A stretch of 64,000 nucleotides of DNA, taken from contig JAZBOQ010000126.1 of assembly GCA_036351195.1 (NCBI GenBank), forward strand, positions 8,059-72,058. The letters run 5' to 3'. Origin of the DNA: Thermoanaerobaculales bacterium (GTDB lineage Bacteria > Acidobacteriota > Thermoanaerobaculia > Thermoanaerobaculales > Sulfomarinibacteraceae). Below the pieces are notes generated by a model. The model saw nothing but the letters and a program-made list of their open reading frames with translations. It was not told the DNA's origin and made no database searches. Below, one piece after another: positions 1 through 12,099 of the stretch. The position numbers were made by a program, and so were the translations under genes. The stretch's first letter is position 1. Each line of letters begins with the position of its first letter.

Positions 1-3000
1 GCCGGCGTCGATCTTCTCGGCGCGTTACCTCGACGACTCGACGGTCCGGTTGGAGCGTCGCTACGCCGACTACACGTTCCCGGCCTGGGTCCAGGGCGTC
101 GACTTCAGCGCCTTTTCGACCCCGGTCGCGACCGTTCCGGCGGGCGACCTCCCGGATCTGGTGACGGCCCCCGACGGTTACAGCCTGGCACCGGGCGAGA
201 GCTTGGTGGTGACCTTCCAGGTTGTGGTGGATGCCGATCTCGATCCGTCCGTGACAGAGATCGTCAACACCGCTTCGAGCTTGACCGACCAGAATCCGGT
301 TGCCACCAACGCAACGGTCACGGATCAGGTGATTCGCGCCGGTGTGCTGGTGACCCCAGGCAACGCAGGATTCGGCCCTGCCGGGAGCACGGTCACCTAC
401 AGTCACGAGGTCGTTAACAACGGTCCCGACGTCGACTCCTTCGAACTTACTCCCTACAGCGACCCCGGTCACCGGGTAGAACTCATCGACCCGGCCACGG
501 GAGCGGTCTTGGCGGTTGACGATGATGGAGACGGGCTGTGGGACGGAGGCACAGCGATCAACACCGGATCGATGGCCGTTGGTGAGTCGAAGGCCTACAA
601 CATCCGGGTGACGATTCCTCCGGGGACGACAGCGGGTAGTTCACTTTCCTCGGGTCTGACGGCCACTTCGGTTCGTGTGCCGACGGTTTCGTCGACGGCC
701 TACGACGAGACGCTGGTTGTGGACGACTTCGGGGAGGTCATCGTCACCCCCGACAACAGCGGAAGCATCGAAACGGTTCCGGGTACAGTTGTTTACCCAC
801 ACCACGTGATCAACAACACGGGGGTCGCCGACGTCTTCGATCTGAGCGTCTTCGACTCGCAGTCCGCTTCCGGGTGGTCCTCGACCATCCACTGGGACAC
901 CAACGGCGACGGTGTCTACACACCTGGAACGGATCTCGAGATCGCCAATACGGCGCAGCTGGACGATGGTGAGTCGCAGTTGATCTTCGTGGTGGTGACG
1001 GCCGATGGAGCTCAGGCGCCGGGTGATGTGAACGTCAGCAGTCTGGGGGCCGTTTCGCGGACCAATCCGACGGCCTGGCTCGACGGCGCCACCGACACCA
1101 CCACGGTTCAGGGCGGAACATTGGACTTCGACCTCACCGGCGGCGGCACCCGCCTGGTCGAACCGGGCGATACTGCCGTCTTCCCGGGACGCCTTCGAAA
1201 CCTCGGCGACGCCGCCGATACCTACGAGATGACCATCACACCGTCGCCGAACTTCGGCATCGACGGGTTTGACCACACCACTCAACTTGTCGTCGGTGGC
1301 GTGGTGGTTGCGGAGGATGAAGACGGCGACGGTAATTGGGACACCATCGACCCGGCCTACGGCGCCGGGCCCAACGGCGGTCCCATTCTCCCGGTCCCGG
1401 CGGGCGGGACCCTGTTGTACGACTTGGTGCGGCCGGTGGATGGGAATCAGCGGCCCTACCACGATCCGGTGACGCTGACCGCGCAGTCCCAGGCCTCAGG
1501 AGGCTGGGACAGCGTGACCGCCACCAACATCCTGCTCGCCGAGAGCCGGGCCGTATTGGCGGGCCTCGAGAGCTACTCGACGGGTGGGCGCGTCGTGGTT
1601 GAGTGGGTCACCACCGCCGAGATCGGAACGGTGGGCTTTGATCTGTACCGGCGTGCCGAAAGCGGTCCGAGCTTCATCAAGCTCAACCACCGGCTGCTGC
1701 AGGGCGTATTCGACGTTTCCCAGGGCGGCGTCTACCGATTCGTGGACGAAAAGGCATCCCCGGGCATGGACCTGGAGTACCTGCTCGTCGAGAGAGATGT
1801 CTGGGGAGACGAGGCGTCGTTCGGTCCCATCGCGACCACCGCGAAGGAGCTCGACGACGAGGACGAGCGACGATCCGCTGCCGTGTGGGACTCGGGTTAT
1901 GAAGCCGCGGCGCGTTCAGAGCGATTCAGAGAACCGGTGGAGATCGCCGGTGGACACGAGGCGTTGCCAGCCGACCGGATGAAGGTCGCCGTCGATCGTA
2001 TCGGTCTCGTCAGACTCGATGTCGACGATGTCGCTCAGGCTCTCGGTGTGGATGCCGGGAAGGCGGCCCACCTCATCGAGACCGGAGACTTCAGGATGAC
2101 CCTGGGCGGCGACGAGGTGGCCTGGATGCCCGAGGAGGGGGGCGGCGGCCTCTTCTTCTTCGGCGAGGCCAATGACAGCATCTACACCCGGGACAACGTC
2201 TACCTGCTCGAGGCAGTCGCCGGCTCGACCATGAACGCGACGGCCGGTGACCCCCAGAAGCCCCAGCCCGGTGGACTTTTCAACGAGTCGCTGCACGTGG
2301 AGCAGGAGCACTTCCCGGTGACCGCGGTGGTCACCGACCCGGAGGGCGACTTCTGGATGTGGGATCTGATGTACGTCGACAGCCCGGTCCCCGTGTCCAA
2401 GAGCTTCAACTTCCACGTTCCTGCGCCGGTCGCGGTGGAGAGCAGGGCGGCGATCACGGTTCACCTCCACGGAGCTCTGAACTCCGACGTTGCGTCCAAC
2501 CACCTGGCGCGAGTCCATCTCAACGGCCGGGAGCTCGGCACGGTGAGCTGGGAGGACCTCGACCCGGTCTCCGCGACCTTCCGGTTTCCGCAAGAGCTGC
2601 TCGTTGATGGGACCAACACCCTCGAGATCGATGCCGAGCTGGTTCCGGGAGTCGATGAGGATCTGATCCTTGTCGACGCCTTTGATGTGGTGTACAAGCG
2701 GGGGCTGGAAGCCGCCGCCGACCAGCTGCTGCTCAGCGGGCGCGGCGGCAGGGTAACGACCGTCACCGGTTTCACGGATCCCGAGATCATGGTCCTCGAC
2801 CTCACCGACCGCTTGCAGCCGTTCGTCCTCACCGGGACGACCATCGAGCGGCACGAGGGCGGCTTCAGTGTCACCTTCGTCCCGCCGGGCTCAGGTGAGA
2901 TTCTGGCGGTGGCCACCAGTTCGGCCGCTGGTCCGCACTGGATGACGCCGGACCAACCATCGGATCTGAGATCGGCGGCCAACGCGGCCGAGCACCTCGT

Positions 3001-4027
3001 CATCGCCGGGCCGGGGTTGGCCGACTCCGCCCAGGCCCTTGCCGATCATCGGACGGCCTACGGACTCCTCAGCCGGGTCGTGCGCATCGAGGACGTTTAC
3101 GACGAGTTCAACCACGGCATGGCAAGCCCCTGGGCGATTCGAGACTTCCTCCAGCTCGCCTGGACCACGTGGTCGGTGAGGCCGCGGTTCGTCGCGCTGG
3201 CGGGTGACGGGTCCCTGGACTACATCGACCGGCTCGGAGGGCACGAGAACCTGATCCCGGCGCCCCAGGTGAGCACGGAGCTCGGCCTCTTCGGTTCGGA
3301 CCAGCCGTTGGCGGACTTCGACGACGACGGCGACCCCGAGGTGGCTCTTGGTCGCCTTCCGGTGCATGATGCGGCCGAGCTGAGGACCATCATCGACAAG
3401 ATCATCGCGGCGGAGACCGCCGACCGGTGGTGGCGCTACACCACTCTTTGGGTTGCCGATGCGGCGGACGAAGGCGGCGAGTTCAGCGGCGATCTCGACG
3501 CCGTTCTCGATCTCCTCGGTCCGAGGTTCACGACCACCCGCATCGATCTGGATGTGACCGGGATCGGTCTTGGCCGCCAGCTGTTGAGCCAACGGTTCGA
3601 CCGCGGCGCGGCGCTCGTCGGTTTCCTCGGTCACGCCGGCATGGACCGGTTGGGTAACCACGGTGTGCTGACAACCGCGGACGTGGGGATGCTTGCCAAT
3701 GACGAGCGGATTCCCGTCGTGACCGCGTTCACCTGCGTCGCGGGTCGATTCGACTTGCCGCTTTACGACACCCTCGCCGAGACAATTCTCCTTCGTGAGG
3801 GTGGTGGTGCAGGGGCCGTTTTCGCACCCGTAGGCCTGACGATGAACGACGACACGGCCATGGTTGGGCAGCAGTTGGTTCGGGTGATCACCAAGAAGCC
3901 GGGCATTCGCATCGGCGATGCTACCCGCAGGGCCCTGTGGCGGTACGTGCGAACCGACGGCGCCGATCCCACGGTGGCCCGGCTCTTCGTCCTGCTCGGC
4001 GATCCGGCATTCGACCCGGGCTGGTAG
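1..4027 (+). CDS. Giant secreted DUF11-repeat protein with a C-terminal peptidase C25 (gingipain-like cysteine peptidase) domain; the 5' end runs off the window
   Basis: The frame is open from nt 2, with no stop before the track's TTG at 50, so the N-terminus is missing. The N-terminal half has repeated modules of the DUF11 / conserved-repeat-domain type (VTPGNAGFGPAGSTVTYSHEVVNNGPDVDSFEL; VTPDNSGSIETVPGTVVYPHHVINNTGVADVFDL; TGGGTRLVEPGDTAVFPGRLRNLGDAADTYEM). The C-terminal part has a C25-like His/Cys dyad context (FLGHAGMDRLG ... VVTAFTCVAGRFD). Stop TAG at 4025-4027. Confidence 0.7.
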   Translation, partial: PASIFSARYLDDSTVRLERRYADYTFPAWVQGVDFSAFSTPVATVPAGDLPDLVTAPDGYSLAPGESLVVTFQVVVDADLDPSVTEIVNTASSLTDQNPVATNATVTDQVIRAGVLVTPGNAGFGPAGSTVTYSHEVVNNGPDVDSFELTPYSDPGHRVELIDPATGAVLAVDDDGDGLWDGGTAINTGSMAVGESKAYNIRVTIPPGTTAGSSLSSGLTATSVRVPTVSSTAYDETLVVDDFGEVIVTPDNSGSIETVPGTVVYPHHVINNTGVADVFDLSVFDSQSASGWSSTIHWDTNGDGVYTPGTDLEIANTAQLDDGESQLIFVVVTADGAQAPGDVNVSSLGAVSRTNPTAWLDGATDTTTVQGGTLDFDLTGGGTRLVEPGDTAVFPGRLRNLGDAADTYEMTITPSPNFGIDGFDHTTQLVVGGVVVAEDEDGDGNWDTIDPAYGAGPNGGPILPVPAGGTLLYDLVRPVDGNQRPYHDPVTLTAQSQASGGWDSVTATNILLAESRAVLAGLESYSTGGRVVVEWVTTAEIGTVGFDLYRRAESGPSFIKLNHRLLQGVFDVSQGGVYRFVDEKASPGMDLEYLLVERDVWGDEASFGPIATTAKELDDEDERRSAAVWDSGYEAAARSERFREPVEIAGGHEALPADRMKVAVDRIGLVRLDVDDVAQALGVDAGKAAHLIETGDFRMTLGGDEVAWMPEEGGGGLFFFGEANDSIYTRDNVYLLEAVAGSTMNATAGDPQKPQPGGLFNESLHVEQEHFPVTAVVTDPEGDFWMWDLMYVDSPVPVSKSFNFHVPAPVAVESRAAITVHLHGALNSDVASNHLARVHLNGRELGTVSWEDLDPVSATFRFPQELLVDGTNTLEIDAELVPGVDEDLILVDAFDVVYKRGLEAAADQLLLSGRGGRVTTVTGFTDPEIMVLDLTDRLQPFVLTGTTIERHEGGFSVTFVPPGSGEILAVATSSAAGPHWMTPDQPSDLRSAANAAEHLVIAGPGLADSAQALADHRTAYGLLSRVVRIEDVYDEFNHGMASPWAIRDFLQLAWTTWSVRPRFVALAGDGSLDYIDRLGGHENLIPAPQVSTELGLFGSDQPLADFDDDGDPEVALGRLPVHDAAELRTIIDKIIAAETADRWWRYTTLWVADAADEGGEFSGDLDAVLDLLGPRFTTTRIDLDVTGIGLGRQLLSQRFDRGAALVGFLGHAGMDRLGNHGVLTTADVGMLANDERIPVVTAFTCVAGRFDLPLYDTLAETILLREGGGAGAVFAPVGLTMNDDTAMVGQQLVRVITKKPGIRIGDATRRALWRYVRTDGADPTVARLFVLLGDPAFDPGW

Positions 4028-4033
4028 GCGTCG

Positions 4034-5158
4034 GTGAATCAACCTGGCTGGATGAGTCGTTTCGGGGCCGAGGTCGCTCGGCGAAGGGTCCCCATTTCGG
4101 TGACCCTCGAGCTGACTCGGCGGTGCAACCTGCGATGCGTCCACTGCTATCTCGGGTCGCAGGAGGTGGTCCGCGAGTCGCGCGAGCAGGAGATGACGAC
4201 CGAGCAGATCTTGTCGGTCATCGACCAGGCGGTGGAGGCGGGGTGTTTGTACCTGCTCATCACCGGTGGTGATCCCATGATGCGGCGGGATTTTGCCGAG
4301 ATCTACCGGCACGCGAGACAGAGCGGTCTCGTGGTGACTGTCTTCGCCGACGGTGTGCTCGTCACCGACGCCGTTGTGGAGCTCTTCCGTGAGCTTCCGC
4401 CGCGGATGGTGGAGATCAGCCTCTATGGCGCCACCGCGGAGACCTACGAGACCGTAACGCGTGTCGAGGGCTCGTACGACAAGTGCCTGAGGGGCGTGCA
4501 CCGGCTGCTGGATGCGGGCATCGAGGTGGGTTTCAAGACGGTGCTTATGACCGTCAATCAGCACGAGCTCGAGGCCATGAGGACCCTGGCGGAGGATCTC
4601 GGCGTGGATTTCCGGATCGACGCCGCCATCTTCCCGTGCCTTTCCGACGGCAATCGGGATCCGCTCGCTCTCCGCGTGGCGCCTGCCGTCGGTGTCGACG
4701 GTGAACTCGCGGCGCCCGGCGCCGTGTCCAAGCTCCGGGAGTACGTGGAGAAGAGATCGGATATACCCGTATCCGACCGGCTCTACGGATGCGGGGCCGG
4801 GGTCACCGGGTTCTCGGTCGATCCCTACGGTTGGGCTTCGCCCTGCCTCATGGCCACACACGTGCGGGCAAACCTGTTGGAGCGTGGCCTGAACGAGGTG
4901 TGGAACGACGACTTGAAGATGGTGATGGACCGACCGGCGCCGGCGGGATATGCGTGCTCGAGCTGCGAGATGCGCGTCGCATGTATGGTCTGTCCCGCAT
5001 TCAATTATCTGGAGACCGGTTCAGAGGACGTGCCATCGGAGTACCTCTGCGCCGCAACTGCCATTCGGTGGAAGCGAATCAACGACGCGAACCCCGGTGG
5101 AGTGGACTGCGACATTCGTACGGCCACCGGAGAGATCTGGGAGGGTTCCACGGAATGA
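4034..5158 (+). CDS. Radical SAM / SPASM-domain peptide maturase
   Basis: Has the CxxxCxxC cluster motif (RRCNLRCVHCY) near the N-terminus. The C-terminal SPASM cysteines are CGAGVTGFSVDPYGWASPC (CX12GX4C) and CSSCEMRVACMVC (CX2CX5CX2C), plus a later Cys in EYLCAA. The GTG at 4034 lies 6 nt after the upstream stop; an alternative ATG is at 4052. Confidence 0.85.
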   Translation: MNQPGWMSRFGAEVARRRVPISVTLELTRRCNLRCVHCYLGSQEVVRESREQEMTTEQILSVIDQAVEAGCLYLLITGGDPMMRRDFAEIYRHARQSGLVVTVFADGVLVTDAVVELFRELPPRMVEISLYGATAETYETVTRVEGSYDKCLRGVHRLLDAGIEVGFKTVLMTVNQHELEAMRTLAEDLGVDFRIDAAIFPCLSDGNRDPLALRVAPAVGVDGELAAPGAVSKLREYVEKRSDIPVSDRLYGCGAGVTGFSVDPYGWASPCLMATHVRANLLERGLNEVWNDDLKMVMDRPAPAGYACSSCEMRVACMVCPAFNYLETGSEDVPSEYLCAATAIRWKRINDANPGGVDCDIRTATGEIWEGSTE

Positions 5159-5334
5159 GAAACCGTGTGAAGAAGAGCGAGAAGAAGAATCGACGCGAAT
5201 ATCGCCGGCCGGAGCTGAGATCCATCGACCTCGTTGCCGACGAGGTTCTTTCGGTCGGCTGCAAGTTGGCCAACAGCGGTGGACCGATTAGCAAGACCTG
5301 CAGCCTGTCGAGCTGTTCAGGCGTTGGGTCCTGA
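5155..5334 (+). CDS. Candidate RiPP precursor peptide (59 aa, 3 Cys, C-terminal Ser)
   Basis: Not listed separately in the track; it is hidden in the tail of ORF 4789..5334. The ATG at 5155-5157 overlaps the maturase stop TGA at 5156-5158 (ATGA). A GGGAGGG Shine-Dalgarno sits at 5139-5145. Sequence: MRNRVKKSEKKNRREYRRPELRSIDLVADEVLSVGCKLANSGGPISKTCSLSSCSGVGS. The N-half is basic and leader-like; the C-half is Cys/Ser/Gly-rich (Cys36, Cys49, Cys54). Confidence 0.6.
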   Translation: MRNRVKKSEKKNRREYRRPELRSIDLVADEVLSVGCKLANSGGPISKTCSLSSCSGVGS

Positions 5335-5360
5335 ACGAGTTGGGCCGAGGCCCCCTGGAA

Positions 5361-5654
5361 ATGAATACGCTCGAACCCCGGCCCGGAATCGTGGTTCGTC
5401 GGATCGCCGACGAGGTGTTGCTGGTCCCCACGACGGGCGAGTTGGCCGGGCTGCAGAAGATCTTCGTGCTCGACGAGGTGGGTTGTTTTATCTGGGAGCG
5501 GCTCGATGGTCGACGGAGCCTCGAGGAGATTTCCCGGCTCATCGCCGGGGAGTTCGCGGTCGAAGAGGACCGGGCGCACGCGGACGTTCTGGACTTCACT
5601 GGCGCACTGACCGATGCGGGTTTGGTCGTGTCGAGGGCGCCGGTTGACGATTGA
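5361..5654 (+). CDS. PqqD-family protein (stand-alone RiPP recognition element)
   Basis: 97 aa. IVVRRIADEVLLVPTTGELAGLQKIFVLDEVGCFIWERLDGRRSLEEISRLIAGEF...VLDFTGALTDAGLV is a typical PqqD/RRE pattern. The ATG at 5361 is 27 nt after the peptide stop; the track's TTG at 5340 is less likely. Confidence 0.75.
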   Translation: MNTLEPRPGIVVRRIADEVLLVPTTGELAGLQKIFVLDEVGCFIWERLDGRRSLEEISRLIAGEFAVEEDRAHADVLDFTGALTDAGLVVSRAPVDD

Positions 5655-5658
5655 AACG

Positions 5659-6579
5659 ATGGTGGACACGCTCGTTCAGCTCTCCATCGCCGACGTGACG
5701 TTGACGGCGGTGGGCGATTCCCGATCGGTGCACATCGAAAAGGACTCGGATTTCTACGCGGCCTTTCTCGGCGGGCGCGGCGATCCCGGCAACGCTGTAG
5801 AGTTCGTCTTCGAGCTGCAGACCGACAGGCCTCCAGAGCCTGGGGTGCTTCCGATGGTCTTCGACACCGGCGAAGCGTGGAAGGTCTACCGCGACGGACC
5901 GGATACGCTGATCGCCATGCCGGCTCCCAGAGGGGTCGACGGTCATCTCTGGGTGGTCCGTCTCAACCAGGAGAATCGACATCACCAGCTCTACGTTGGG
6001 CCGGCTCTGGTGCGCCATGAGGCGGGTCGGCGGGTGATCGAGAACCCGCTGCGCTATCCGCTCGATCAGATTCTGATGATGTACCTCATGGCGCAACACC
6101 GGTGCCTTATCCTGCACGCCGCGGGGATCTGCCGCGGGGGCCTCGGCGTACTATTCTCCGGCGTTTCCGGCGCGGGGAAGAGCACGCTCTCCGGCCTGCT
6201 CGAAGGGCTCGACGACACCGTGCACCTCAGCGACGACCGGGTCGTGGCCCGGAAGGTGCGAGACGGCATCCGTGTCTACGGCACACCGTGGCCCGGCGAG
6301 GCCATGGTTGCCGCCGACGAGAGCGCACCACTCGGCGCGGTCGTGCTCTTACGTCAGGCGGCTCACCACGAGCTCACGCGACTCGAACCGGTCGAGGCTC
6401 TCAAACGTCTGCTCCCGATGGCTTCCATCCTCTGGTACGACTCGGTCCGCGCCGATGCCGCTCTCGGCTGGTGCGACGAGCTCCTGCGGTCGGTGCGCGC
6501 CTACGAACTGGCTTTCGCCAGAGATGAGCGTGTCAGGGCCGTGGTCGAAGACCTCTTTGACGAGCTCTCGGCTTCCTGA
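5659..6579 (+). CDS. HPr kinase/phosphorylase C-terminal-domain-like P-loop protein (HprK-related)
   Basis: Has the P-loop GVSGAGKST followed by HLSDDRVV, matching the HprK pattern G.SG.GKS ... LV.DD.V. The ATG at 5659 is 5 nt after the PqqD stop (5652-5654). Confidence 0.65.
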   Translation: MVDTLVQLSIADVTLTAVGDSRSVHIEKDSDFYAAFLGGRGDPGNAVEFVFELQTDRPPEPGVLPMVFDTGEAWKVYRDGPDTLIAMPAPRGVDGHLWVVRLNQENRHHQLYVGPALVRHEAGRRVIENPLRYPLDQILMMYLMAQHRCLILHAAGICRGGLGVLFSGVSGAGKSTLSGLLEGLDDTVHLSDDRVVARKVRDGIRVYGTPWPGEAMVAADESAPLGAVVLLRQAAHHELTRLEPVEALKRLLPMASILWYDSVRADAALGWCDELLRSVRAYELAFARDERVRAVVEDLFDELSAS

Positions 6580-6621
6580 GGAGTAGTCATTGCCCTCTCG
6601 CCGTGGTTCAATGACCCCGAC

Positions 6622-8874
6622 ATGACCCACACCCACGACAGTCCGATCGACGCCGACACGATCCTCGCCTCCATCCGCCGCCGCGGGCGCGGGGGCATGA
6701 ACATGCAGATGCTGGTGGCGGAGACCGTCGACCGGTTGGGCATCGGCCGCTCGGAGGCGAGGCGGGTGCTGCGTCGGCCGCTTCGCGAGCTCCAACAGCG
6801 AGGCGCGATCGTTCTCGGACGCGGCAAGCGGTACTTCGTCACCGAGGTTTCGAATCTCCACCCCGGCCGCTATCGGCGGATGTCCGGCGGCGGGTTCGTG
6901 GTGGACCTGAACGCGGCGGACGGCGCTCCGGTGTGGATCCCGCCCAGCGGCCGGCGGGGCGCGCTGCACGGCGATGCGGTGCTTGTCCGCCTCGAATCGC
7001 CGCACAAACGAGCCCGGATGCTCGGTCTGCGGGAGGGCGTGGTGGTGCGCATCGTCGAGCGCCGGACCACCGAAGTGGTGGGGGTTTGGGACGAGGAGGG
7101 CGGCAGGAGCCAGGTTCGGCCGCTGGGTCGCGGGCAGAAGTTCACGGTGGAGGTGACGGCCTCGAAGGTGAAGGGCACGCCGCACGACGGCGAGCTCGTG
7201 GTTGTCACCGTGGACAACGTGGACTCCAAAGGCCGGCACGCCCGGGGTGTGCTGCTGGATCGCCTCGGCAAGCCCGAAGAGGCCGGTGCGGTGGATCGGG
7301 CGGTGCTGCGGCTGTTCGGTATCGACGAGGTCTTCAACCCGGAGGTGGAGGCAGAGGCAGACGCCCTTCCGGGAGAGATCGGCGCAGCCGAGCTGACCGG
7401 CCGTTGGGACCTTCGCGACCGGCCCGCCATCACCATCGACGGCCGCACCGCCCGCGATTTCGACGACGCGGTGAGCGCGCGGCGGGTGGGGAAGAACGAC
7501 ATCGAGGTCGAGGTCCACATCGCCGACGTGAGCCACTACGTGCGATCAGGAACGCTGCTCGACCGAGAGGCCCGCCGCCGGTCCACCAGCGTCTACCTGC
7601 CGGGGCTGTGCGTGCCCATGCTGCCGGAGCGGCTGTCCAACGACCTCTGCTCGCTGCGTGAGGGCGTGGATCGCCTGACCTTCAGCGTCCGCTTCCGGGT
7701 GGGGCCGGATGGGCGGGTCGGTGCGGCGAAGGCGAAGCGGTCGGTGATTCGCTCGCGGCGCCGGTGCACCTACCTGGAGGTCTTCGACTGGCTGCTGCGG
7801 CCCCGGGCCGAGTGGCCGCCGGAGACCGAGGGCTTCGCCGATTCGCTGGAGCTGCTCGCCGAGGCGGCGGAGCGGCTGGGTGCGGCGCGAAAGGTCAGGG
7901 GCAGCCTCGACTTCGACCTGGCCGAGCCGGTGCTGATCCTCGACCCCGAGGGCCGGGTGGAGTCCATCGCGCCGAGTGCCCGCAACCGGGCCCACCGGCT
8001 CATCGAGGAGCTCATGGTCACCGCCAACATCGCGGTGGCGAGGTTGATCGTGGCGGCGGATCAGCCGTGTCTGCACCGGGTGCACGACGAGCCCGATCCG
8101 GCCAAGATCGAAACCCTGGGCGAGGTGGTCAAGGAGCTCGGCCTGCGTCTCGACAGCGGTGGGGACGAGGTCTCGCCGAACGCCCTGCAGGCCCTGCTCG
8201 AGCAGGTGGAAGGCCGGCGGGAGGAACACATGGTGGCGATGCTGGTGCTGCGCTCCATGGCGCGGGCGGTCTACAGCCACGATCCGCGCGGCCACTATGC
8301 TCTGGCCACCGACGCCTACCTCCACTTCACCTCGCCCATCCGGCGCTACCCGGATCTGGTGACCCACCGCATGTTGGACCGGCTCCTGGATCGTGGGGCG
8401 TTGAAGGGCGAGGAGCGCGACGCCGCCGAGACGGAGCTCCGCGCCCTCGGACCGGCGTGCTCGGCCCTCGAGCAGGAGGCGGAAAAGGCCGAACGGACAG
8501 CGGTGCAGTGGAAGACGGCGCTCTTTCTGCGCGATCGGGTGGGGGAGGTCTTCACCGGCCGAATCTCGGGGGTGGTGGCGTTCGGTTTCTTTGTCGAGCT
8601 CGATGATGTCTTCGCCGACGCTCTGGTCCACATCAAGGACCTGCTCGACGATTACTACGAGTTCGACGAGGCCCGCCACCGCCTGGTGGGGGAGCGGACC
8701 GGTCGAAGGTGGCGGCTCGGCGACAAGCTCGAGGTGCGGCTGACCCGGGTGGACATGGACAGCTTCCAGATTCAGGTCGTGCCGGTGGGGATCAAGCCCG
8801 ACCGGCGGGCCATGCAGGGCAAGGACCGCCGGTCGAAGACCCGCCGTCGTCCCGGCCGCCGCTCCCGAAGGTAG
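6622..8874 (+). CDS. rnr: Ribonuclease R (RNB family 3'-5' exoribonuclease with S1 domain and basic tail)
   Basis: 750 aa. Has an RNB catalytic region (ITIDGRTARDFDDAV ... HIADVSHYV ... YLHFTSPIRRYPDL), a C-terminal S1-like region (GRISGVVAFGFFVEL) and a Lys/Arg-rich tail. Confidence 0.9.
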   Translation: MTHTHDSPIDADTILASIRRRGRGGMNMQMLVAETVDRLGIGRSEARRVLRRPLRELQQRGAIVLGRGKRYFVTEVSNLHPGRYRRMSGGGFVVDLNAADGAPVWIPPSGRRGALHGDAVLVRLESPHKRARMLGLREGVVVRIVERRTTEVVGVWDEEGGRSQVRPLGRGQKFTVEVTASKVKGTPHDGELVVVTVDNVDSKGRHARGVLLDRLGKPEEAGAVDRAVLRLFGIDEVFNPEVEAEADALPGEIGAAELTGRWDLRDRPAITIDGRTARDFDDAVSARRVGKNDIEVEVHIADVSHYVRSGTLLDREARRRSTSVYLPGLCVPMLPERLSNDLCSLREGVDRLTFSVRFRVGPDGRVGAAKAKRSVIRSRRRCTYLEVFDWLLRPRAEWPPETEGFADSLELLAEAAERLGAARKVRGSLDFDLAEPVLILDPEGRVESIAPSARNRAHRLIEELMVTANIAVARLIVAADQPCLHRVHDEPDPAKIETLGEVVKELGLRLDSGGDEVSPNALQALLEQVEGRREEHMVAMLVLRSMARAVYSHDPRGHYALATDAYLHFTSPIRRYPDLVTHRMLDRLLDRGALKGEERDAAETELRALGPACSALEQEAEKAERTAVQWKTALFLRDRVGEVFTGRISGVVAFGFFVELDDVFADALVHIKDLLDDYYEFDEARHRLVGERTGRRWRLGDKLEVRLTRVDMDSFQIQVVPVGIKPDRRAMQGKDRRSKTRRRPGRRSRR

Positions 8875-8899
8875 GCGCTCGGCTTCTGGGCGCGATCCC

Positions 8900-8916
8900 G
8901 CGGGCGGGACGCCCGC
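8900..8916. repeat. REP-like hairpin GCGGGCGGGACGCCCGC (family also at 15077-15095 and 15116-15134)
   Basis: Perfect 7-bp stem with a 3-nt loop, 26 nt after the rnr stop. The same 17-19-mer recurs twice inside the 3' end of CDS 14142..15239. Confidence 0.7.
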
Positions 8917-9073
8917 ACCACAATAGGTGTCGGCTCGAGAAGTGGGTTGTGGTGCGCGCGTCTCGCGCGCAGGATCACTTTGAATTTGGGAATACCTGTA
9001 TGCACCAGAAGAGAATGCACTGCGATGACTCGGCGCGTCCGACGCGCCGCCACAATTCGTTCGACGAATTGTC

Positions 9074-9123
9074 TTGACAAACCGCCTCGGCACTCTCATA
9101 TTCTAAACTACAAAACGATCGTT
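9074..9123 (+). promoter_or_regulatory. Candidate sigma70-type promoter plus palindromic operator upstream of the TetR gene
   Basis: TTGACA at 9074-9079, a 17-nt spacer, then CATATT at 9097-9102. A perfect 10-bp palindrome AACGATCGTT lies at 9114-9123 between the -10 and the SD (GGGAGG, 9134-9139), in an unusually AT-rich stretch. Confidence 0.35.
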
Positions 9124-9148
9124 CGGTTTTTCTAGGGAGGCCCCCAGC

Positions 9149-9814
9149 TTGCCGAGAGGTGCCCAAGCCGCCAGGTCCGAGGTCGCCACCGCCAAGGTGC
9201 TCGATGCGGCCCTGCACCTCTTTTCCAGCCAGGGTTACGGTGCCACCTCCATGCGCCAGATCGCCGAGGCCTGCGATCAGTCGGTGGGCAACCTCTACCA
9301 CCACTTCGGATCCAAAGAGGCGATCTACAAGAAGCTCATCGACGGCTACCTGCTGCAGTTCCTCCAGGCGGACCACCCCCTGCAGAAGGTCTTTGTCGCC
9401 GCGCGTTTTCCCGACGATCTCGAGGACCTCGCGGCGGCCATCGAGCTCACCGTGGAGCGGAACAAGGCGTCGATCATGCTCGTCTTCATCGACGTCATCG
9501 AGTTCGGGGGACGGCACATCCGCTGGTTCTACGAAACCATGGCCGATCGATTCAAGGCCATGTACGGCGAACGCTTCGAGGAGCTCGATCGCCAGGGGCG
9601 GCTCACCGACGCCGATCCCATGGTGGCGGTGATGGTGGCCACCCGGTGGCTCTTCTACTTCTACACGGTGGAGAAATGTTTCGGCGTGCCCATGCACTTC
9701 GGCATGGACGCCCAACAAGCGGTTGACGGATTTATCCGCATTCTGAGAAACGGGCTGCTGCGCGGTGACGAAACGGCGCAGGAGCCGAATCCCGATAAAG
9801 GGGGGAGATCATGA
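9149..9814 (+). CDS. TetR/AcrR-family transcriptional regulator
   Basis: Has an N-terminal HTH (VLDAALHLFSSQGYGATSMRQIAEACDQSVGNLYHHFGSKEAIY). TTG start 8 nt after the SD. The stop overlaps the next gene's ATG (ATGA at 9811-9814). Confidence 0.85.
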   Translation: MPRGAQAARSEVATAKVLDAALHLFSSQGYGATSMRQIAEACDQSVGNLYHHFGSKEAIYKKLIDGYLLQFLQADHPLQKVFVAARFPDDLEDLAAAIELTVERNKASIMLVFIDVIEFGGRHIRWFYETMADRFKAMYGERFEELDRQGRLTDADPMVAVMVATRWLFYFYTVEKCFGVPMHFGMDAQQAVDGFIRILRNGLLRGDETAQEPNPDKGGRS

Positions 9815-12099
9815 GCGATTGGAAACGACTGTTGATGGTACTGGCGATCCTGCTGGTGCTGGTGGTGGATCTGACGCCGCCGGCGATGGCGCAGGAAGCC
9901 ACCGAGGAAGCCCCGGCGGAAGCTGCGGCCGAAGAAGAGACGGCAGCCGAGGAACCTCAAGGGAGGTTCATCGAAGAGATCGTGGTGACCTCCCGGCGTC
10001 GGGAAGAGAATCTGCAGGAGGTCCCGATCGCGGTCTCGGTGATCGCCTCGGACCAGCTCGAGGACATCGCGGCGACGTCGATCGCCGAGCTGCAGGCCTA
10101 CGTGCCTAACCTGTCCATCTACCAGGGCCGCAACCAGTCGACGACGCTGACCGCGTTCGTCCGCGGCGTCGGCCAGGCGGATCCGCTGTGGGGCGTCGAC
10201 CCGGGCGTCGGGCTCTACATCGACGATGTGTACATCGCCCGCGCCCAGGGCGCGCTATTGGATGTCTACGACGTGGCGCGGGTCGAGGTGCTGCGCGGCC
10301 CCCAGGGAACCCTCTACGGCAAGAACACCATCGGCGGCGCGGTGAAGTACGTGACCAAGGAAATGACCGACGACCCCGAGGGGCGGATCACCTGGAACAT
10401 GGGGTCCTTCAATACCCAGGAGGTCCGCGCCAACTTCGCCGGCCCCTTGATCAAGGGCAAGCTTCGAGGCAAGGCATCGGCGGCGTGGCTCACCCGTGAC
10501 GGCTACGGCGACAACCTCTACCAGAACCGCGAGGTGTCGAACAAGGACACCATGGCGTGGCGGCTGGGTCTCGACTGGCTGCCCACCGACAATCTCAGCT
10601 TCACCCTGAACTACGACCACACCGAGGACGACGCGGAGCCCATCGGCCTGACCCGCCTCGAGCCGAACCCGTACTGCGCGCTCTTCGGCGGCGCGCCGTG
10701 CGTGCCGTTTGACGACCTTTTCGACACCGAGAGCGGCATCGACCCGGTCAACGAGACCGACGCGACGGGGTACTCGTTGGGGGTGGAGTGGGACATCAAC
10801 GACGCGTGGACCTTCAAGTCCATCACCGCCTACCGCGAGACCGACTCCCGCAACTGGATCGACTTCGACACCTCGCCGTTGGCGATCGCCGACTCCCAGG
10901 CGACCTACTACGACGACCAGACCACCCAGGAGTTTCAGCTGCTCTACACAGGTTCGGACCGGTGGGGCGGCGTCTTCGGGCTGTACTACTTCGACGGGAC
11001 CGCCGGCGGCATCGTCAATGCGATGTTCTACACGAACTTCCCGAACACCACCGAGGGCTACGTCGACACCACCTCGTACGCCTTCTACGCCGATGCCAGC
11101 GTCAAGCTCACCGACCGGCTCTCCCTCAACCTGGGAATCCGGCCGACCCGTGAGGAGAAGCACGGTGTCGCCTTCAATGTCTACAACACCGACGACACCT
11201 TCACCGACTACTACTTCGTGGCGGCGGACTTCGACGACGAGACGACCTTCACCTCGTGGGCGCCCAAGATCGGCCTCGACTATCAGTTCAACCCGGACGT
11301 CATGGGCTACATCAAGGTCAATCAGGGCTTCAAGAGCGGCGGCTACAACGTCCGCGCCCAGTCGACCCTGTTCCCCGAGACCGCAGAGCCTTTCGACGAC
11401 GAGGTCATGACGGTCGGGGAGGTCGGCTTCAAGTCGGTGCTCGCCAACCGCAGCCTGGTGCTCAACGGCGCCCTCTTCTACGGCGACTACTCCGACATCC
11501 AGGTCTCCACCTTCACCTCGTACGACTCGGACGGCGACGGGGTCGACGACGCCTTCTTCGGCAACTTCCTGAATGCCGGCGACGCGACCATCAAGGGCGC
11601 CGAGCTCGAGTGGAATTGGGCGTCGCAGTCCTTCTTCGGGCTGTCGGGCTTCCTCGCCTACCTCGACACCGATCCGGATTACCTCGACGAGAACGGCGAT
11701 GGCTTCCTCGACGCCCAGGTGATCACCAATGCTCCCGAGTTCACCGGGACGCTCCGCGCCAACTTCGACTGGCCCCTGGCCGGCGGCCTGCTCACCGCCA
11801 GCGTCGGCTACGCCTATCGCGACGAGTCGATGCTGACCAACGAAGGCGGCGCCGACCCGCGCGACCCCTCCGGCGAAACACCGCTCGAGCCGCTCATTCA
11901 GGACTCGTACGGTTTGCTCGACGCGTGGGTGGCCTGGCTGTCGCCGCAGGCGAAGTGGCGCATCGGGATCACCGGTAAGAACCTCACCGACGAGGAGTAC
12001 CTGCTCAGCGGCTACAACCTGCCGGTGCTGGGCTCGATCCAGGGCTCGTACGGACCGCCGCTGACCGTCATCGGGACCATCGAGTACCGTTTCTGGTAG
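9811..12099 (+). CDS. TonB-dependent outer-membrane receptor
   Basis: Has a signal peptide (…PPAMAQEA), a plug region (IEEIVVTSRRREENLQEVPIAVSVI … VEVLRGPQGTLYGKNTIGG), a long beta-barrel region, and a terminal aromatic residue (…IEYRFW). Confidence 0.85.
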   Translation: MSDWKRLLMVLAILLVLVVDLTPPAMAQEATEEAPAEAAAEEETAAEEPQGRFIEEIVVTSRRREENLQEVPIAVSVIASDQLEDIAATSIAELQAYVPNLSIYQGRNQSTTLTAFVRGVGQADPLWGVDPGVGLYIDDVYIARAQGALLDVYDVARVEVLRGPQGTLYGKNTIGGAVKYVTKEMTDDPEGRITWNMGSFNTQEVRANFAGPLIKGKLRGKASAAWLTRDGYGDNLYQNREVSNKDTMAWRLGLDWLPTDNLSFTLNYDHTEDDAEPIGLTRLEPNPYCALFGGAPCVPFDDLFDTESGIDPVNETDATGYSLGVEWDINDAWTFKSITAYRETDSRNWIDFDTSPLAIADSQATYYDDQTTQEFQLLYTGSDRWGGVFGLYYFDGTAGGIVNAMFYTNFPNTTEGYVDTTSYAFYADASVKLTDRLSLNLGIRPTREEKHGVAFNVYNTDDTFTDYYFVAADFDDETTFTSWAPKIGLDYQFNPDVMGYIKVNQGFKSGGYNVRAQSTLFPETAEPFDDEVMTVGEVGFKSVLANRSLVLNGALFYGDYSDIQVSTFTSYDSDGDGVDDAFFGNFLNAGDATIKGAELEWNWASQSFFGLSGFLAYLDTDPDYLDENGDGFLDAQVITNAPEFTGTLRANFDWPLAGGLLTASVGYAYRDESMLTNEGGADPRDPSGETPLEPLIQDSYGLLDAWVAWLSPQAKWRIGITGKNLTDEEYLLSGYNLPVLGSIQGSYGPPLTVIGTIEYRFW

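Follow-up and report, generated by a model that had tools for sequence, protein, structure and literature searches.

A radical-SAM/SPASM RiPP-type cassette with a discrete PqqD, an ScmC-type P-loop protein and an adjoining C25 peptidase gene in Thermoanaerobaculales

Introduction

A PqqE-like radical S-adenosylmethionine (radical-SAM) enzyme of the SPASM type, a PqqD protein and an HprK-related protein of the ScmC type make up SynChlorMet, a system defined in silico (TIGR04248-04251 for ScmC, ScmD, ScmE and ScmF) which has two radical-SAM genes, ScmE and ScmF. To our knowledge, its TIGRFAM description identifies no precursor and names no substrate, which has left cassettes of this kind as orphan systems. 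The same three kinds of protein, together with a small Cys-containing peptide, are encoded at 4034-6579 on the plus strand of a 64,000-nt stretch of contig JAZBOQ010000126.1 from a Thermoanaerobaculales bacterium (Acidobacteriota); the whole stretch is called the window below. A preliminary description, made from the letters of the window, had read these genes as a cassette for a peptide that is made on ribosomes and modified after translation (RiPP), of no assignable product class. Based on the comparative analysis presented here, we conclude that this RiPP-type cassette is real and widespread, that its precursors form a family which is delineated here for the first time, and that its link to giant C25 peptidases, which was not expected, has statistical support.

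Further described systems share parts of this gene set. Kinase-type lasso peptide clusters (paeninodin PadeK, pseudomycoidin PsmK/PsmN, Bradymonadales BsfK) contain a discrete PqqD/RiPP recognition element (RRE), a YxxPxL leader, a precursor ending in Ser and a P-loop protein homologous to HprK. In lasso precursors, YxxPxL is a conserved leader motif which occupies positions -17 to -12 and binds the RRE (PMC10368454). The HprK homologues phosphorylate the side-chain hydroxyl of the Ser at the C-terminus, recognize little else of the precursor, and leave a phosphate to which a nucleotidyltransferase can add a further group (PMC8498205). The systems for sactipeptides and ranthipeptides (SkfB, CteB, AlbA, StsB, PapB) also combine a SPASM/twitch maturase with an RRE, here an N-terminal fusion, and with a small Cys-containing precursor. 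Finally, PorU, the sortase of type IX secretion, and the gingipains have a C25 catalytic domain with a His/Cys dyad. We know of no role of C25 peptidases in RiPP processing or in a sortase-like coupling of RiPPs to the cell surface.

Comparison with described systems

Architecturally, the cassette is nearest to the in-silico SynChlorMet system. The P-loop protein falls under the ScmC family PF27840, in agreement with the SynChlorMet-type cassettes which the preliminary description had mentioned, ScmE and ScmD match the maturase and PqqD better over the full length than any other NCBIfam model, and neither system has a known product. The locus differs from SynChlorMet in having one radical-SAM gene instead of two, an identifiable precursor family and a linked giant C25 peptidase. 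Moreover, all scores fall short of the SynChlorMet cut-offs (ScmC 17.3 of 125 bits, ScmD 37 of 100, ScmE 104.7 of 400, ScmF 98.4 of 400), and the same applies to the GeoRSP models (GeoRSP_rSAM 87.3 of 400 bits, geo_PqqD_fam 19.6 of 100). Thus, membership in curated SynChlorMet, GeoRSP or HprK-related TIGRFAM/NCBIfam models was rejected, as no cut-off was reached in any of them. Full-text literature searches returned no paper on the combination of radical-SAM, PqqD and HprK-like proteins; the view of an uncharacterized system without assignable product class was retained.

By analogy, the cassette would combine the tailoring of kinase-type lasso clusters with a maturation as in sacti- and ranthipeptide systems. 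YxxPxL, a PqqD-type RRE and a C-terminal Ser are accessory features of lasso clusters and not class-defining ones; in the window, a radical-SAM/SPASM protein takes the class-defining place of the cyclase and the B2 protease. The leader Tyr is located 20 residues before the presumed core instead of 17 as in lasso precursors, and the core has three conserved Cys but no ring-forming Asp/Glu pattern. Neither a lasso cyclase (Asn-synthetase-like) nor a B2 transglutaminase-type protease was detected in the five cassette proteins or within 10 kb on either side in the annotated orthologous locus L081, and for lack of these enzymes the cassette falls outside the lasso peptides. Sacti- and ranthipeptide systems, which include with SkfB and CteB the closest solved sequences to the window maturase, differ in other respects: the RRE of the window is not fused to the maturase, the locus additionally encodes a kinase-like protein and a C25 peptidase, the thioethers are putative, and the Cys spacing C-x12-16-C-x4-8-C with the terminal Gly-Ser matches no described class.

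Organization and distribution of the cassette

The four closely packed genes at 4034-6579 of the preliminary description were borne out by ORF listing and translation; they encode a radical-SAM/SPASM protein, a 59-aa precursor, PqqD and the P-loop protein, all on the plus strand. The maturase gene (4034-5158, 374 aa) starts with a GTG 6 nt past the stop of a C25 peptidase gene. The ATG of the precursor gene (5155-5334) overlaps the TGA of the maturase gene (ATGA), with a GGAGG 10 nt upstream. The start of the PqqD gene (5361-5654, 97 aa) follows 26 nt beyond the precursor stop, and the P-loop gene (5659-6579, 306 aa) starts 4 nt beyond the PqqD stop. No second radical-SAM gene is present within 1-9000. 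A gene for RNase R, which begins at 6622 (677 bits, above the cut-off), marks the right boundary. A promoter and terminator scan of 1-9200 was uninformative, with counts not exceeding the shuffle expectation.

In order to find related loci, an alignment of the maturase was scanned against one genome per GTDB species. The 80 loci obtained were split by local tblastn, iterated hidden Markov model searches and all-against-all clustering into 44 family loci (L001-L041, L043, L044 and L055) and 36 unrelated radical-SAM controls. An ScmC-like gene is present in 42 of the 44 family loci and in none of the controls (Fisher p = 1e-20; phylogenetic non-independence inflates this value, yet the pattern is plain), and PqqD was found in 40 of 44. 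Hosts belong to Acidobacteriota, Nitrospirota, Desulfobacterota (including the cable bacteria Electronema and Electrothrix), Kiritimatiellae, Victivallales, Myxococcota, Chloroflexota, Omnitrophota, Aerophobetes, WOR-3, Fermentibacteria, Verrucomicrobiia and Planctomycetia. Locus L081, a JGI contig with a 63% identical maturase, repeats the whole gene order of the window: C25 (2846 aa), radical-SAM, an uncalled gap, PqqD, ScmC, RNase R, TetR and a TonB receptor.

The precursor peptide family

The precursor of the window, MRNRVKKSEKKNRREYRRPELRSIDLVADEVLSVG-CKLANSGGPISKTCSLSSCSGVGS, follows the pattern MRNRVKKSEKKNRRE-YRRPEL-RSIDLVADEVLSVG-CKLANSGGPISKTCSLSSCSGVGS and ends in Ser. Its leader motif YRRPEL (aa 16-21; 5200-5217) corresponds to the YxxPxL of lasso leaders (PMC10368454); it is the presumed docking site of PqqD as an RRE. 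The presumed core of 24 aa, CKLANSGGPISKTCSLSSCSGVGS (5260-5331), follows a predicted leader/core boundary, contains three conserved Cys and terminates with Gly-Ser.

By looking for ORFs with this motif in the loci and by searching the protein collection with a profile, we obtained 56 unique peptides of this family. In about 27 loci, which come from many phyla, the ORF has the same position (tblastn finds it in 15-20), and homologous loci thus keep a small Cys-rich ORF, the lack of which the preliminary description had named as a refutation. The family pattern begins with a Lys/Arg-rich N-terminus followed by an invariant Y-x-x-P-x-(L/I/V) and an amphipathic stretch; Tyr and Pro of the motif are invariant in an alignment of 22 sequences. 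The first Cys, typically within G-C-K, is located exactly 20 residues past the Tyr in 48 of the 56 peptides. It is followed by a variable, Gly/Pro-rich stretch with the second Cys 12-16 residues past the first and the third Cys 5-9 residues past the second, and 51 of 56 peptides contain exactly three Cys. About five residues after the third Cys, the peptides end with a penultimate Gly or Ala (46/56) and a C-terminal Ser or Thr (48/56, 86%), although Ser and Thr together account for only 15% of the core residues. Apart from the C-terminus, the three Cys are the only strongly conserved side chains of the core. Across the family, the leader is conserved and the core hypervariable. The same is seen when the window is compared with its L081 orthologue, in which the leader is kept and the core diverges (KTSTGGARPGGFTCSSNGCSSAGS); a conserved leader with a divergent core is the usual signature of a RiPP precursor. 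Both the YxxPxL motif and the conserved C-terminal Ser/Thr had gone unmentioned in the preliminary description, and they strengthen its analogy to lasso kinases.

Searches of 22 precursor representatives against Pfam and NCBIfam at E ≤ 1 gave nothing meaningful, and all database copies of the family are listed as “hypothetical” without a Pfam domain. NCBI has the window precursor as a 55-aa hypothetical protein (V2I67_09515) starting at an internal GTG at 5167, and the gene was left uncalled in the orthologous JGI records L081 (11100-11280) and L082. Consequently, the precursor family is largely invisible in public annotation.

Two ideas about cleavage of the precursor were discarded. A signal peptidase site according to the -3/-1 rule or a lipobox (L-A-x-G↓C) was dropped, as position -3 is Leu in 31 of 56 peptides and the leader is charged, not hydrophobic. 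The Lys after the first Cys was considered as a site for a C25 enzyme resembling Lys-gingipain and rejected, since it is equally conserved without C25 and missing in several C25 loci.

Some precursors are unusual. The cable bacteria (Candidatus Electronema/Electrothrix; L013 and L027) have a C25-type cassette with atypical two-Cys precursors. In L013, two precursor-like ORFs (8745-8915 and 10101-10277) flank the maturase gene and have the C-termini SDP and QSG instead of Ser/Thr, and the L027 precursor (10207-10395) ends with Ala-Ser. L055 has two copies of the leader motif (10027-10092 and 10535-10600), about 500 nt apart; its maturase and ScmC-like genes seem to be frameshifted or broken up, and a C25 gene is found 7 kb away on the opposite strand.

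The radical-SAM/SPASM maturase and PqqD

Domain searches supported the proposed radical-SAM and PqqD assignments. The maturase belongs to the radical-SAM superfamily (Pfam PF04055, 91.6 bits with a gathering score of 29.5, E = 8e-26). Its CNLRCVHC (aa 31-38; 4124-4147) represents the CxxxCxxC motif of the radical-SAM [4Fe-4S] cluster, and C31, C35 and C38 are invariant in 26 aligned homologues. The SPASM region (4790-5050) contains seven Cys, C253-x12-G-x4-C271, C308-x2-C311-x5-C317-x2-C320 and C339, all of which are invariant in the same alignment, implying two auxiliary Fe-S clusters. With 20.3 bits, the match to Pfam SPASM (PF13186) remained just below the gathering score of 21.5, but relatives of the maturase do carry PF13186. 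The last spacing is CX2C compared to the motif CX9-15GX4C ... CX2CX5CX3C ... C. The Pfam score is, thus, marginally low, and we accept the SPASM assignment on the seven Cys plus the fold, which matches the SPASM enzymes PqqE, SuiB and anSME.

An AlphaFold2 model of the maturase (pLDDT 82.7) had PqqE, SkfB, SuiB and anSME as best PDB neighbors in Foldseek, and a PDB profile search retrieved SkfB (3e-25), PqqE (1e-16) and CteB (8e-13). The nearest relatives of solved structure are SPASM/twitch enzymes that modify peptides, among them SkfB and CteB as thioether synthases. The best full-length NCBIfam match is ScmE; the second-best match, MftC (117.6 bits), covers the N-terminal half. In the JGI gene call, the maturase is a protein of 330 aa from the internal Met45, by which the CxxxCxxC motif is lost. 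However, Trp6 is near-invariant among the homologues, and together they favor the GTG start at 4034 over Met45.

The 97-aa protein is a member of the PqqD family (PF05402, 59.7 bits with a gathering score of 23.4, E = 3.5e-16). ScmD is its best NCBIfam match, and lasso-type PqqD models match it at E = 3e-6.

The ScmC-type P-loop protein

The P-loop protein had been proposed to be HprK-like, which fold and catalytic residues support but Pfam does not: Hpr_kinase_C (PF07475) gave no match at E ≤ 0.01 in the Pfam copy used, while some family members carry PF07475 in precomputed data. NCBIfam matches to HprK_rel_B (1e-9), HprK_rel_A (2e-6) and ScmC (2e-3) all stayed below cut-off; HprK-related A and B (TIGR04352, TIGR04355) reached 27.3 and 37.7 bits, with a cut-off of 200, in the P-loop region only. 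An identical public protein (V2I67_09525, hypothetical, Thermoanaerobaculales bacterium) carries the newer Pfam family PF27840, named ScmC, and the assignment of the window protein to PF27840 rests on this precomputed annotation. The same family is precomputed for at least 110 of 120 homologues among the matches listed. In an AlphaFold2 model built with 50 homologues (pLDDT 95.9), the protein has two domains, and Foldseek retrieved ATP-PEPCK (4e-7) and HprK/P (1e-4). The HprK assignment is, therefore, based on weak sequence matches plus the fold and not on Pfam Hpr_kinase_C; the protein is a homologue within the PEPCK/HprK P-loop superfamily and not a bona fide HprK.

The catalytic constellation (6115-6240) consists of His153, the Walker A motif GVSGAGKST (6160-6186) and SDDR (aa 191-194). 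His153, Walker A (G-x-S-G-A-G-K-S-T), S-D-D-R and additionally G-T-P-W are invariant in 39 locus-derived and 50 database homologues. When aligned with Lactobacillus casei HprK/P (H...GDSGVGKSE...IADDRV; the query bore a T176E change), His153 falls on the HprK His, Walker A on GDSGVGKSE and LSDDRV on IADDRV, and a profile-level match to the same HprK/P region has E = 5e-4. As the catalytic residues are invariant and align with those of HprK/P, the phosphotransfer apparatus looks intact at the sequence level, and we annotate the protein as a putative Ser kinase of peptides. Its ScmC/HprK-like family is a large one, with 2005 representatives at 50% identity for E ≤ 1e-30 and 11,745 for E ≤ 1e-10. 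Our literature search found no characterized PF27840 member and no experimental work on the ScmC/HprK-like family.

The upstream C25 peptidase

The preliminary description had noted that no lasso cyclase or protease is present. This is correct for the cyclase, which none of the cassette proteins resembles, but a peptidase gene ends at 4027. It encodes the 3′ part (at least 1341 codons; 1-4027, plus strand) of a giant secreted C25-family cysteine peptidase. Its Peptidase_C25 domain (aa 983-1321) scored 202.7 bits with a gathering score of 23 (E = 1.4e-59), and the dyad is intact, with His in GHAG (codon 3629-3631) and Cys in TCVAG (codon 3734-3736). The reading frame (frame 2) has no stop from nt 2 on, and its alignment with a 2908-aa homologue in L005 begins at aa 1507 of the latter; the gene, therefore, runs off the 5′ end of the window. 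Full-length homologues have 2500-2900 aa, signal peptides and CLIPPER/DUF11 repeats. The PorU sortase model (NF033707) was the best NCBIfam match, but with 185.8 bits over 612 aligned residues it did not reach the cut-off of 420. In contrast to PorU and the gingipains, enzymes of the window type occur in non-Bacteroidota and combine a signal peptide, CLIPPER/DUF11 repeats and a C-terminal C25 domain in 2500-2900 aa.

C25 genes are present in 18 of 44 family loci from at least eight phyla, compared to 0 of 36 controls (p = 4e-6). In 13 loci, the gene directly precedes the core on the same strand, at a distance of 35-530 nt. Because C25 abuts the cassette and is conserved with it, the unit extends to the left of 4034 and past the edge of the window. 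No record tying C25 enzymes to RiPP cassettes was found in the literature.

Other genes accompany the family. A SipW/archaeal-type signal peptidase I was found in about 16-20 family loci (the copy in L008 scored 63 bits with a cut-off of 51.85), NTP_transf_5 (PF14907) in 19 and GNAT in 11; tblastn of the window detected neither a SipW-type signal peptidase nor NTP_transf_5 or GNAT. C25, the SipW-type signal peptidase or both were seen in 21 of the 24 loci that extend 3 kb or more on either side. C25 and NTP_transf_5 hardly ever occur together, with L016, L033 and L036 as the only exceptions, which suggests two sub-architectures with different late steps; the window is of the C25 type.

Variants of these layouts were also seen. 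Seven loci (L029, L030, L032, L034, L035, L037 and L039) contain three radical-SAM/SPASM genes, PqqD, an ScmC-like gene, NTP_transf_5 and a signal-peptidase-like gene. Their hosts are Nitrospirota/Nitrospira, with L030 from a metagenome-assembled genome (MAG) of Deltaproteobacteria. This variant looks nearer to the two-radical-SAM layout of SynChlorMet, yet it misses the SynChlorMet cut-offs. Upstream of its cassette, L031 carries a tandem pair of C25 genes (12-3611 and 4197-8639), and in L003 (71-8954), the giant C25 gene is split into many ORFs, probably by indel errors of a long-read MAG.

Proposed pathway and alternative explanations

We read the observed gene content, domain and fold assignments, conserved catalytic residues, precursor motifs and synteny as an operon for a RiPP of an uncharacterized family, which we consider a reasonably probable interpretation. 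The discrete PqqD probably binds the charged YxxPxL leader of about 35 aa and presents the precursor to the radical-SAM/SPASM enzyme. This enzyme would then act on the 24-aa core and cross-link its three Cys, most likely by thioethers, as the conserved Cys and the relatedness to SkfB and CteB suggest. The ScmC-type protein may use ATP to phosphorylate the hydroxyl of the C-terminal Ser59, as lasso HprK homologues do. We propose this because the accessory logic, i.e., RRE, YxxPxL, terminal Ser/Thr, HprK fold and NTP_transf_5/GNAT, matches that of kinase-type lasso clusters; the invariant catalytic residues and the conserved terminal Ser/Thr are consistent with it. Finally, the secreted C25 peptidase might remove the leader or otherwise process the exported peptide outside the cytoplasm, a step to which synteny points and which is the weakest of the pathway.

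A number of observations weigh against single steps of this pathway. The maturase remained below the cut-offs of curated models (StsB 102.7 of 625 bits, PapB 56.7 of 340, AlbA 61.8 of 850, SkfB 73.4 of 300) and also of the maturase models for mycofactocin (MftC) and pyrroloquinoline quinone (PqqE). Its fold neighbors include enzymes which form C-C cross-links (PqqE, SuiB), oxidize Cys (anSME) or epimerize (EpeE), and these score as well as SkfB in Foldseek and in sequence comparisons, while the variable core shows no evident conserved acceptor residue for a thioether. It is conceivable, if doubtful, that the radical-SAM enzyme of the same cassette makes no thioethers but a C-C or C-N cross-link, oxidizes Cys, epimerizes or targets the C-terminal Gly-Ser; the three Cys could then be metal ligands or form disulfides. 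MftC, the second-best NCBIfam match, acts on the C-terminal Tyr of MftA, and the conserved C-terminus of the family could equally be the target of the maturase. On the other hand, no core side chains besides the C-terminus are as strongly conserved as the three Cys, and SkfB and CteB are the best solved sequence-level matches covering the SPASM region. Cys-rich cores paired with SPASM enzymes are typically thioether substrates, as in sacti- and ranthipeptides. A different function is also to be weighed for the ScmC-type protein, namely as ATP-dependent scaffold or chaperone, phosphorylase, kinase of another residue or of a small molecule, or regulator of the maturase. Sequence similarity to HprK is limited to approximately 55 residues around the P-loop, PEPCK as best overall fold match is a small-molecule kinase, the literature offered no characterized family member, and the ScmC-like gene is still found in the loci of the 8 of 56 precursors without terminal Ser/Thr. 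Nevertheless, we regard these functions as rather unlikely in view of the invariant HprK/P His, Walker A and Asp-Asp constellation and the prevalence of terminal Ser/Thr in the precursors. Furthermore, the only characterized RiPP-associated HprK homologues phosphorylate a C-terminal Ser and share the context of PqqD, YxxPxL and nucleotidyltransferase (PMC8498205, PMC10368454).

The peptidase step has most to contend with. Of the 24 evaluable loci, 10 (about 40%) lack C25, many loci encode a SipW/archaeal-type signal peptidase I instead or in addition, and a surface-type protein of 2500-2900 aa is larger than a leader peptidase should need to be. None of the precursor features co-varies with C25, the conserved Lys after the first Cys being independent of its presence, and no exporter is consistently linked to the family, with ABC transporter genes in only 8 loci. 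Possibly, then, C25 is a mere neighbor, a giant surface protease or adhesin as its size, signal peptide and CLIPPER repeats would suit, with a function of its own and placed next to the cassette by common regulation or ancestry, and the leader is cut by the SipW-type peptidase in relatives and by an unlinked enzyme in this genome; we would give this explanation a minor share of belief. It has to account for C25 genes immediately upstream on the same strand with gaps of 6-135 nt in 12 loci of Acidobacteriota, Nitrospirota and Desulfobacterota, for further C25-linked loci in Kiritimatiellae, Myxococcota, Chloroflexota, Omnitrophota and Victivallales, and for the complete absence from the controls. 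In the window unit, moreover, C25 is the only peptidase, and the 6-nt gap to the maturase gene suggests translational coupling. A last objection concerns the precursor itself: the small ORF might have arisen by chance, with the cassette modifying something else and no RiPP being made. JGI annotation left it uncalled in L081 and L082, and high-GC DNA yields many spurious ORFs. However, 56 unique homologues, which share invariant Tyr, Pro and Cys at fixed spacing and keep their place in the locus in many phyla and also in low-GC genomes, the Shine-Dalgarno sequence with the stop/start overlap, and a conserved leader next to a divergent core between the window and L081 contradict it. We consider a chance ORF extremely improbable, and the conservation data effectively refute it.

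Implications of the cassette

If the operon encodes a RiPP as proposed, it might even represent a widespread, undescribed class, in which the radical-SAM/SPASM enzyme knots a three-Cys core of about 24 aa, the ScmC-type kinase O-phosphorylates the Ser at the C-terminus, and a giant PorU-like C25 enzyme is the dedicated extracellular processor, either as leader peptidase or as a sortase-like transpeptidase coupling the peptide to the cell surface. We put this forward tentatively, as a speculation more likely to fail than to hold. The delineated family opens ScmC, a large family spread across many mostly uncultured anaerobic phyla, to experiment. It provides an explicit substrate, i.e., a short precursor whose leader motif is defined and which has three Cys at fixed positions and ends in Ser, and this makes the enzymology of ScmC cassettes directly testable by co-expression. 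If the kinase analogy is true, the lasso tailoring module of RRE and C-terminal-Ser kinase, in some cases with nucleotidyltransferase, would be portable into a radical-SAM pathway. If the C25 link is functional, it would add a new enzyme family to RiPP processing and offer a first access to the function of the giant C25/CLIPPER surface proteins outside the Bacteroidota. The cassette is a target for natural-product discovery and RiPP enzymology and not a new biological principle; current understanding would be overturned only if C25 turned out to be dedicated to the processing or ligation of RiPPs.

Flanking genes

Downstream of the cassette, the window encodes RNase R, a TetR regulator (9149-9814) and a TonB-dependent receptor (9811-12099), together covering 6622-12099. 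The order of these genes is the same in L081 (12560-19118) but is not kept in more distant loci, and we therefore regard them as genes for housekeeping or transport that probably have no relation to the cassette. In L081, the closest syntenic relative of the window, a large Peptidase_S8 gene (1-986; subtilisin-like, weak match) precedes the giant C25 gene; the equivalent region lies outside the window.

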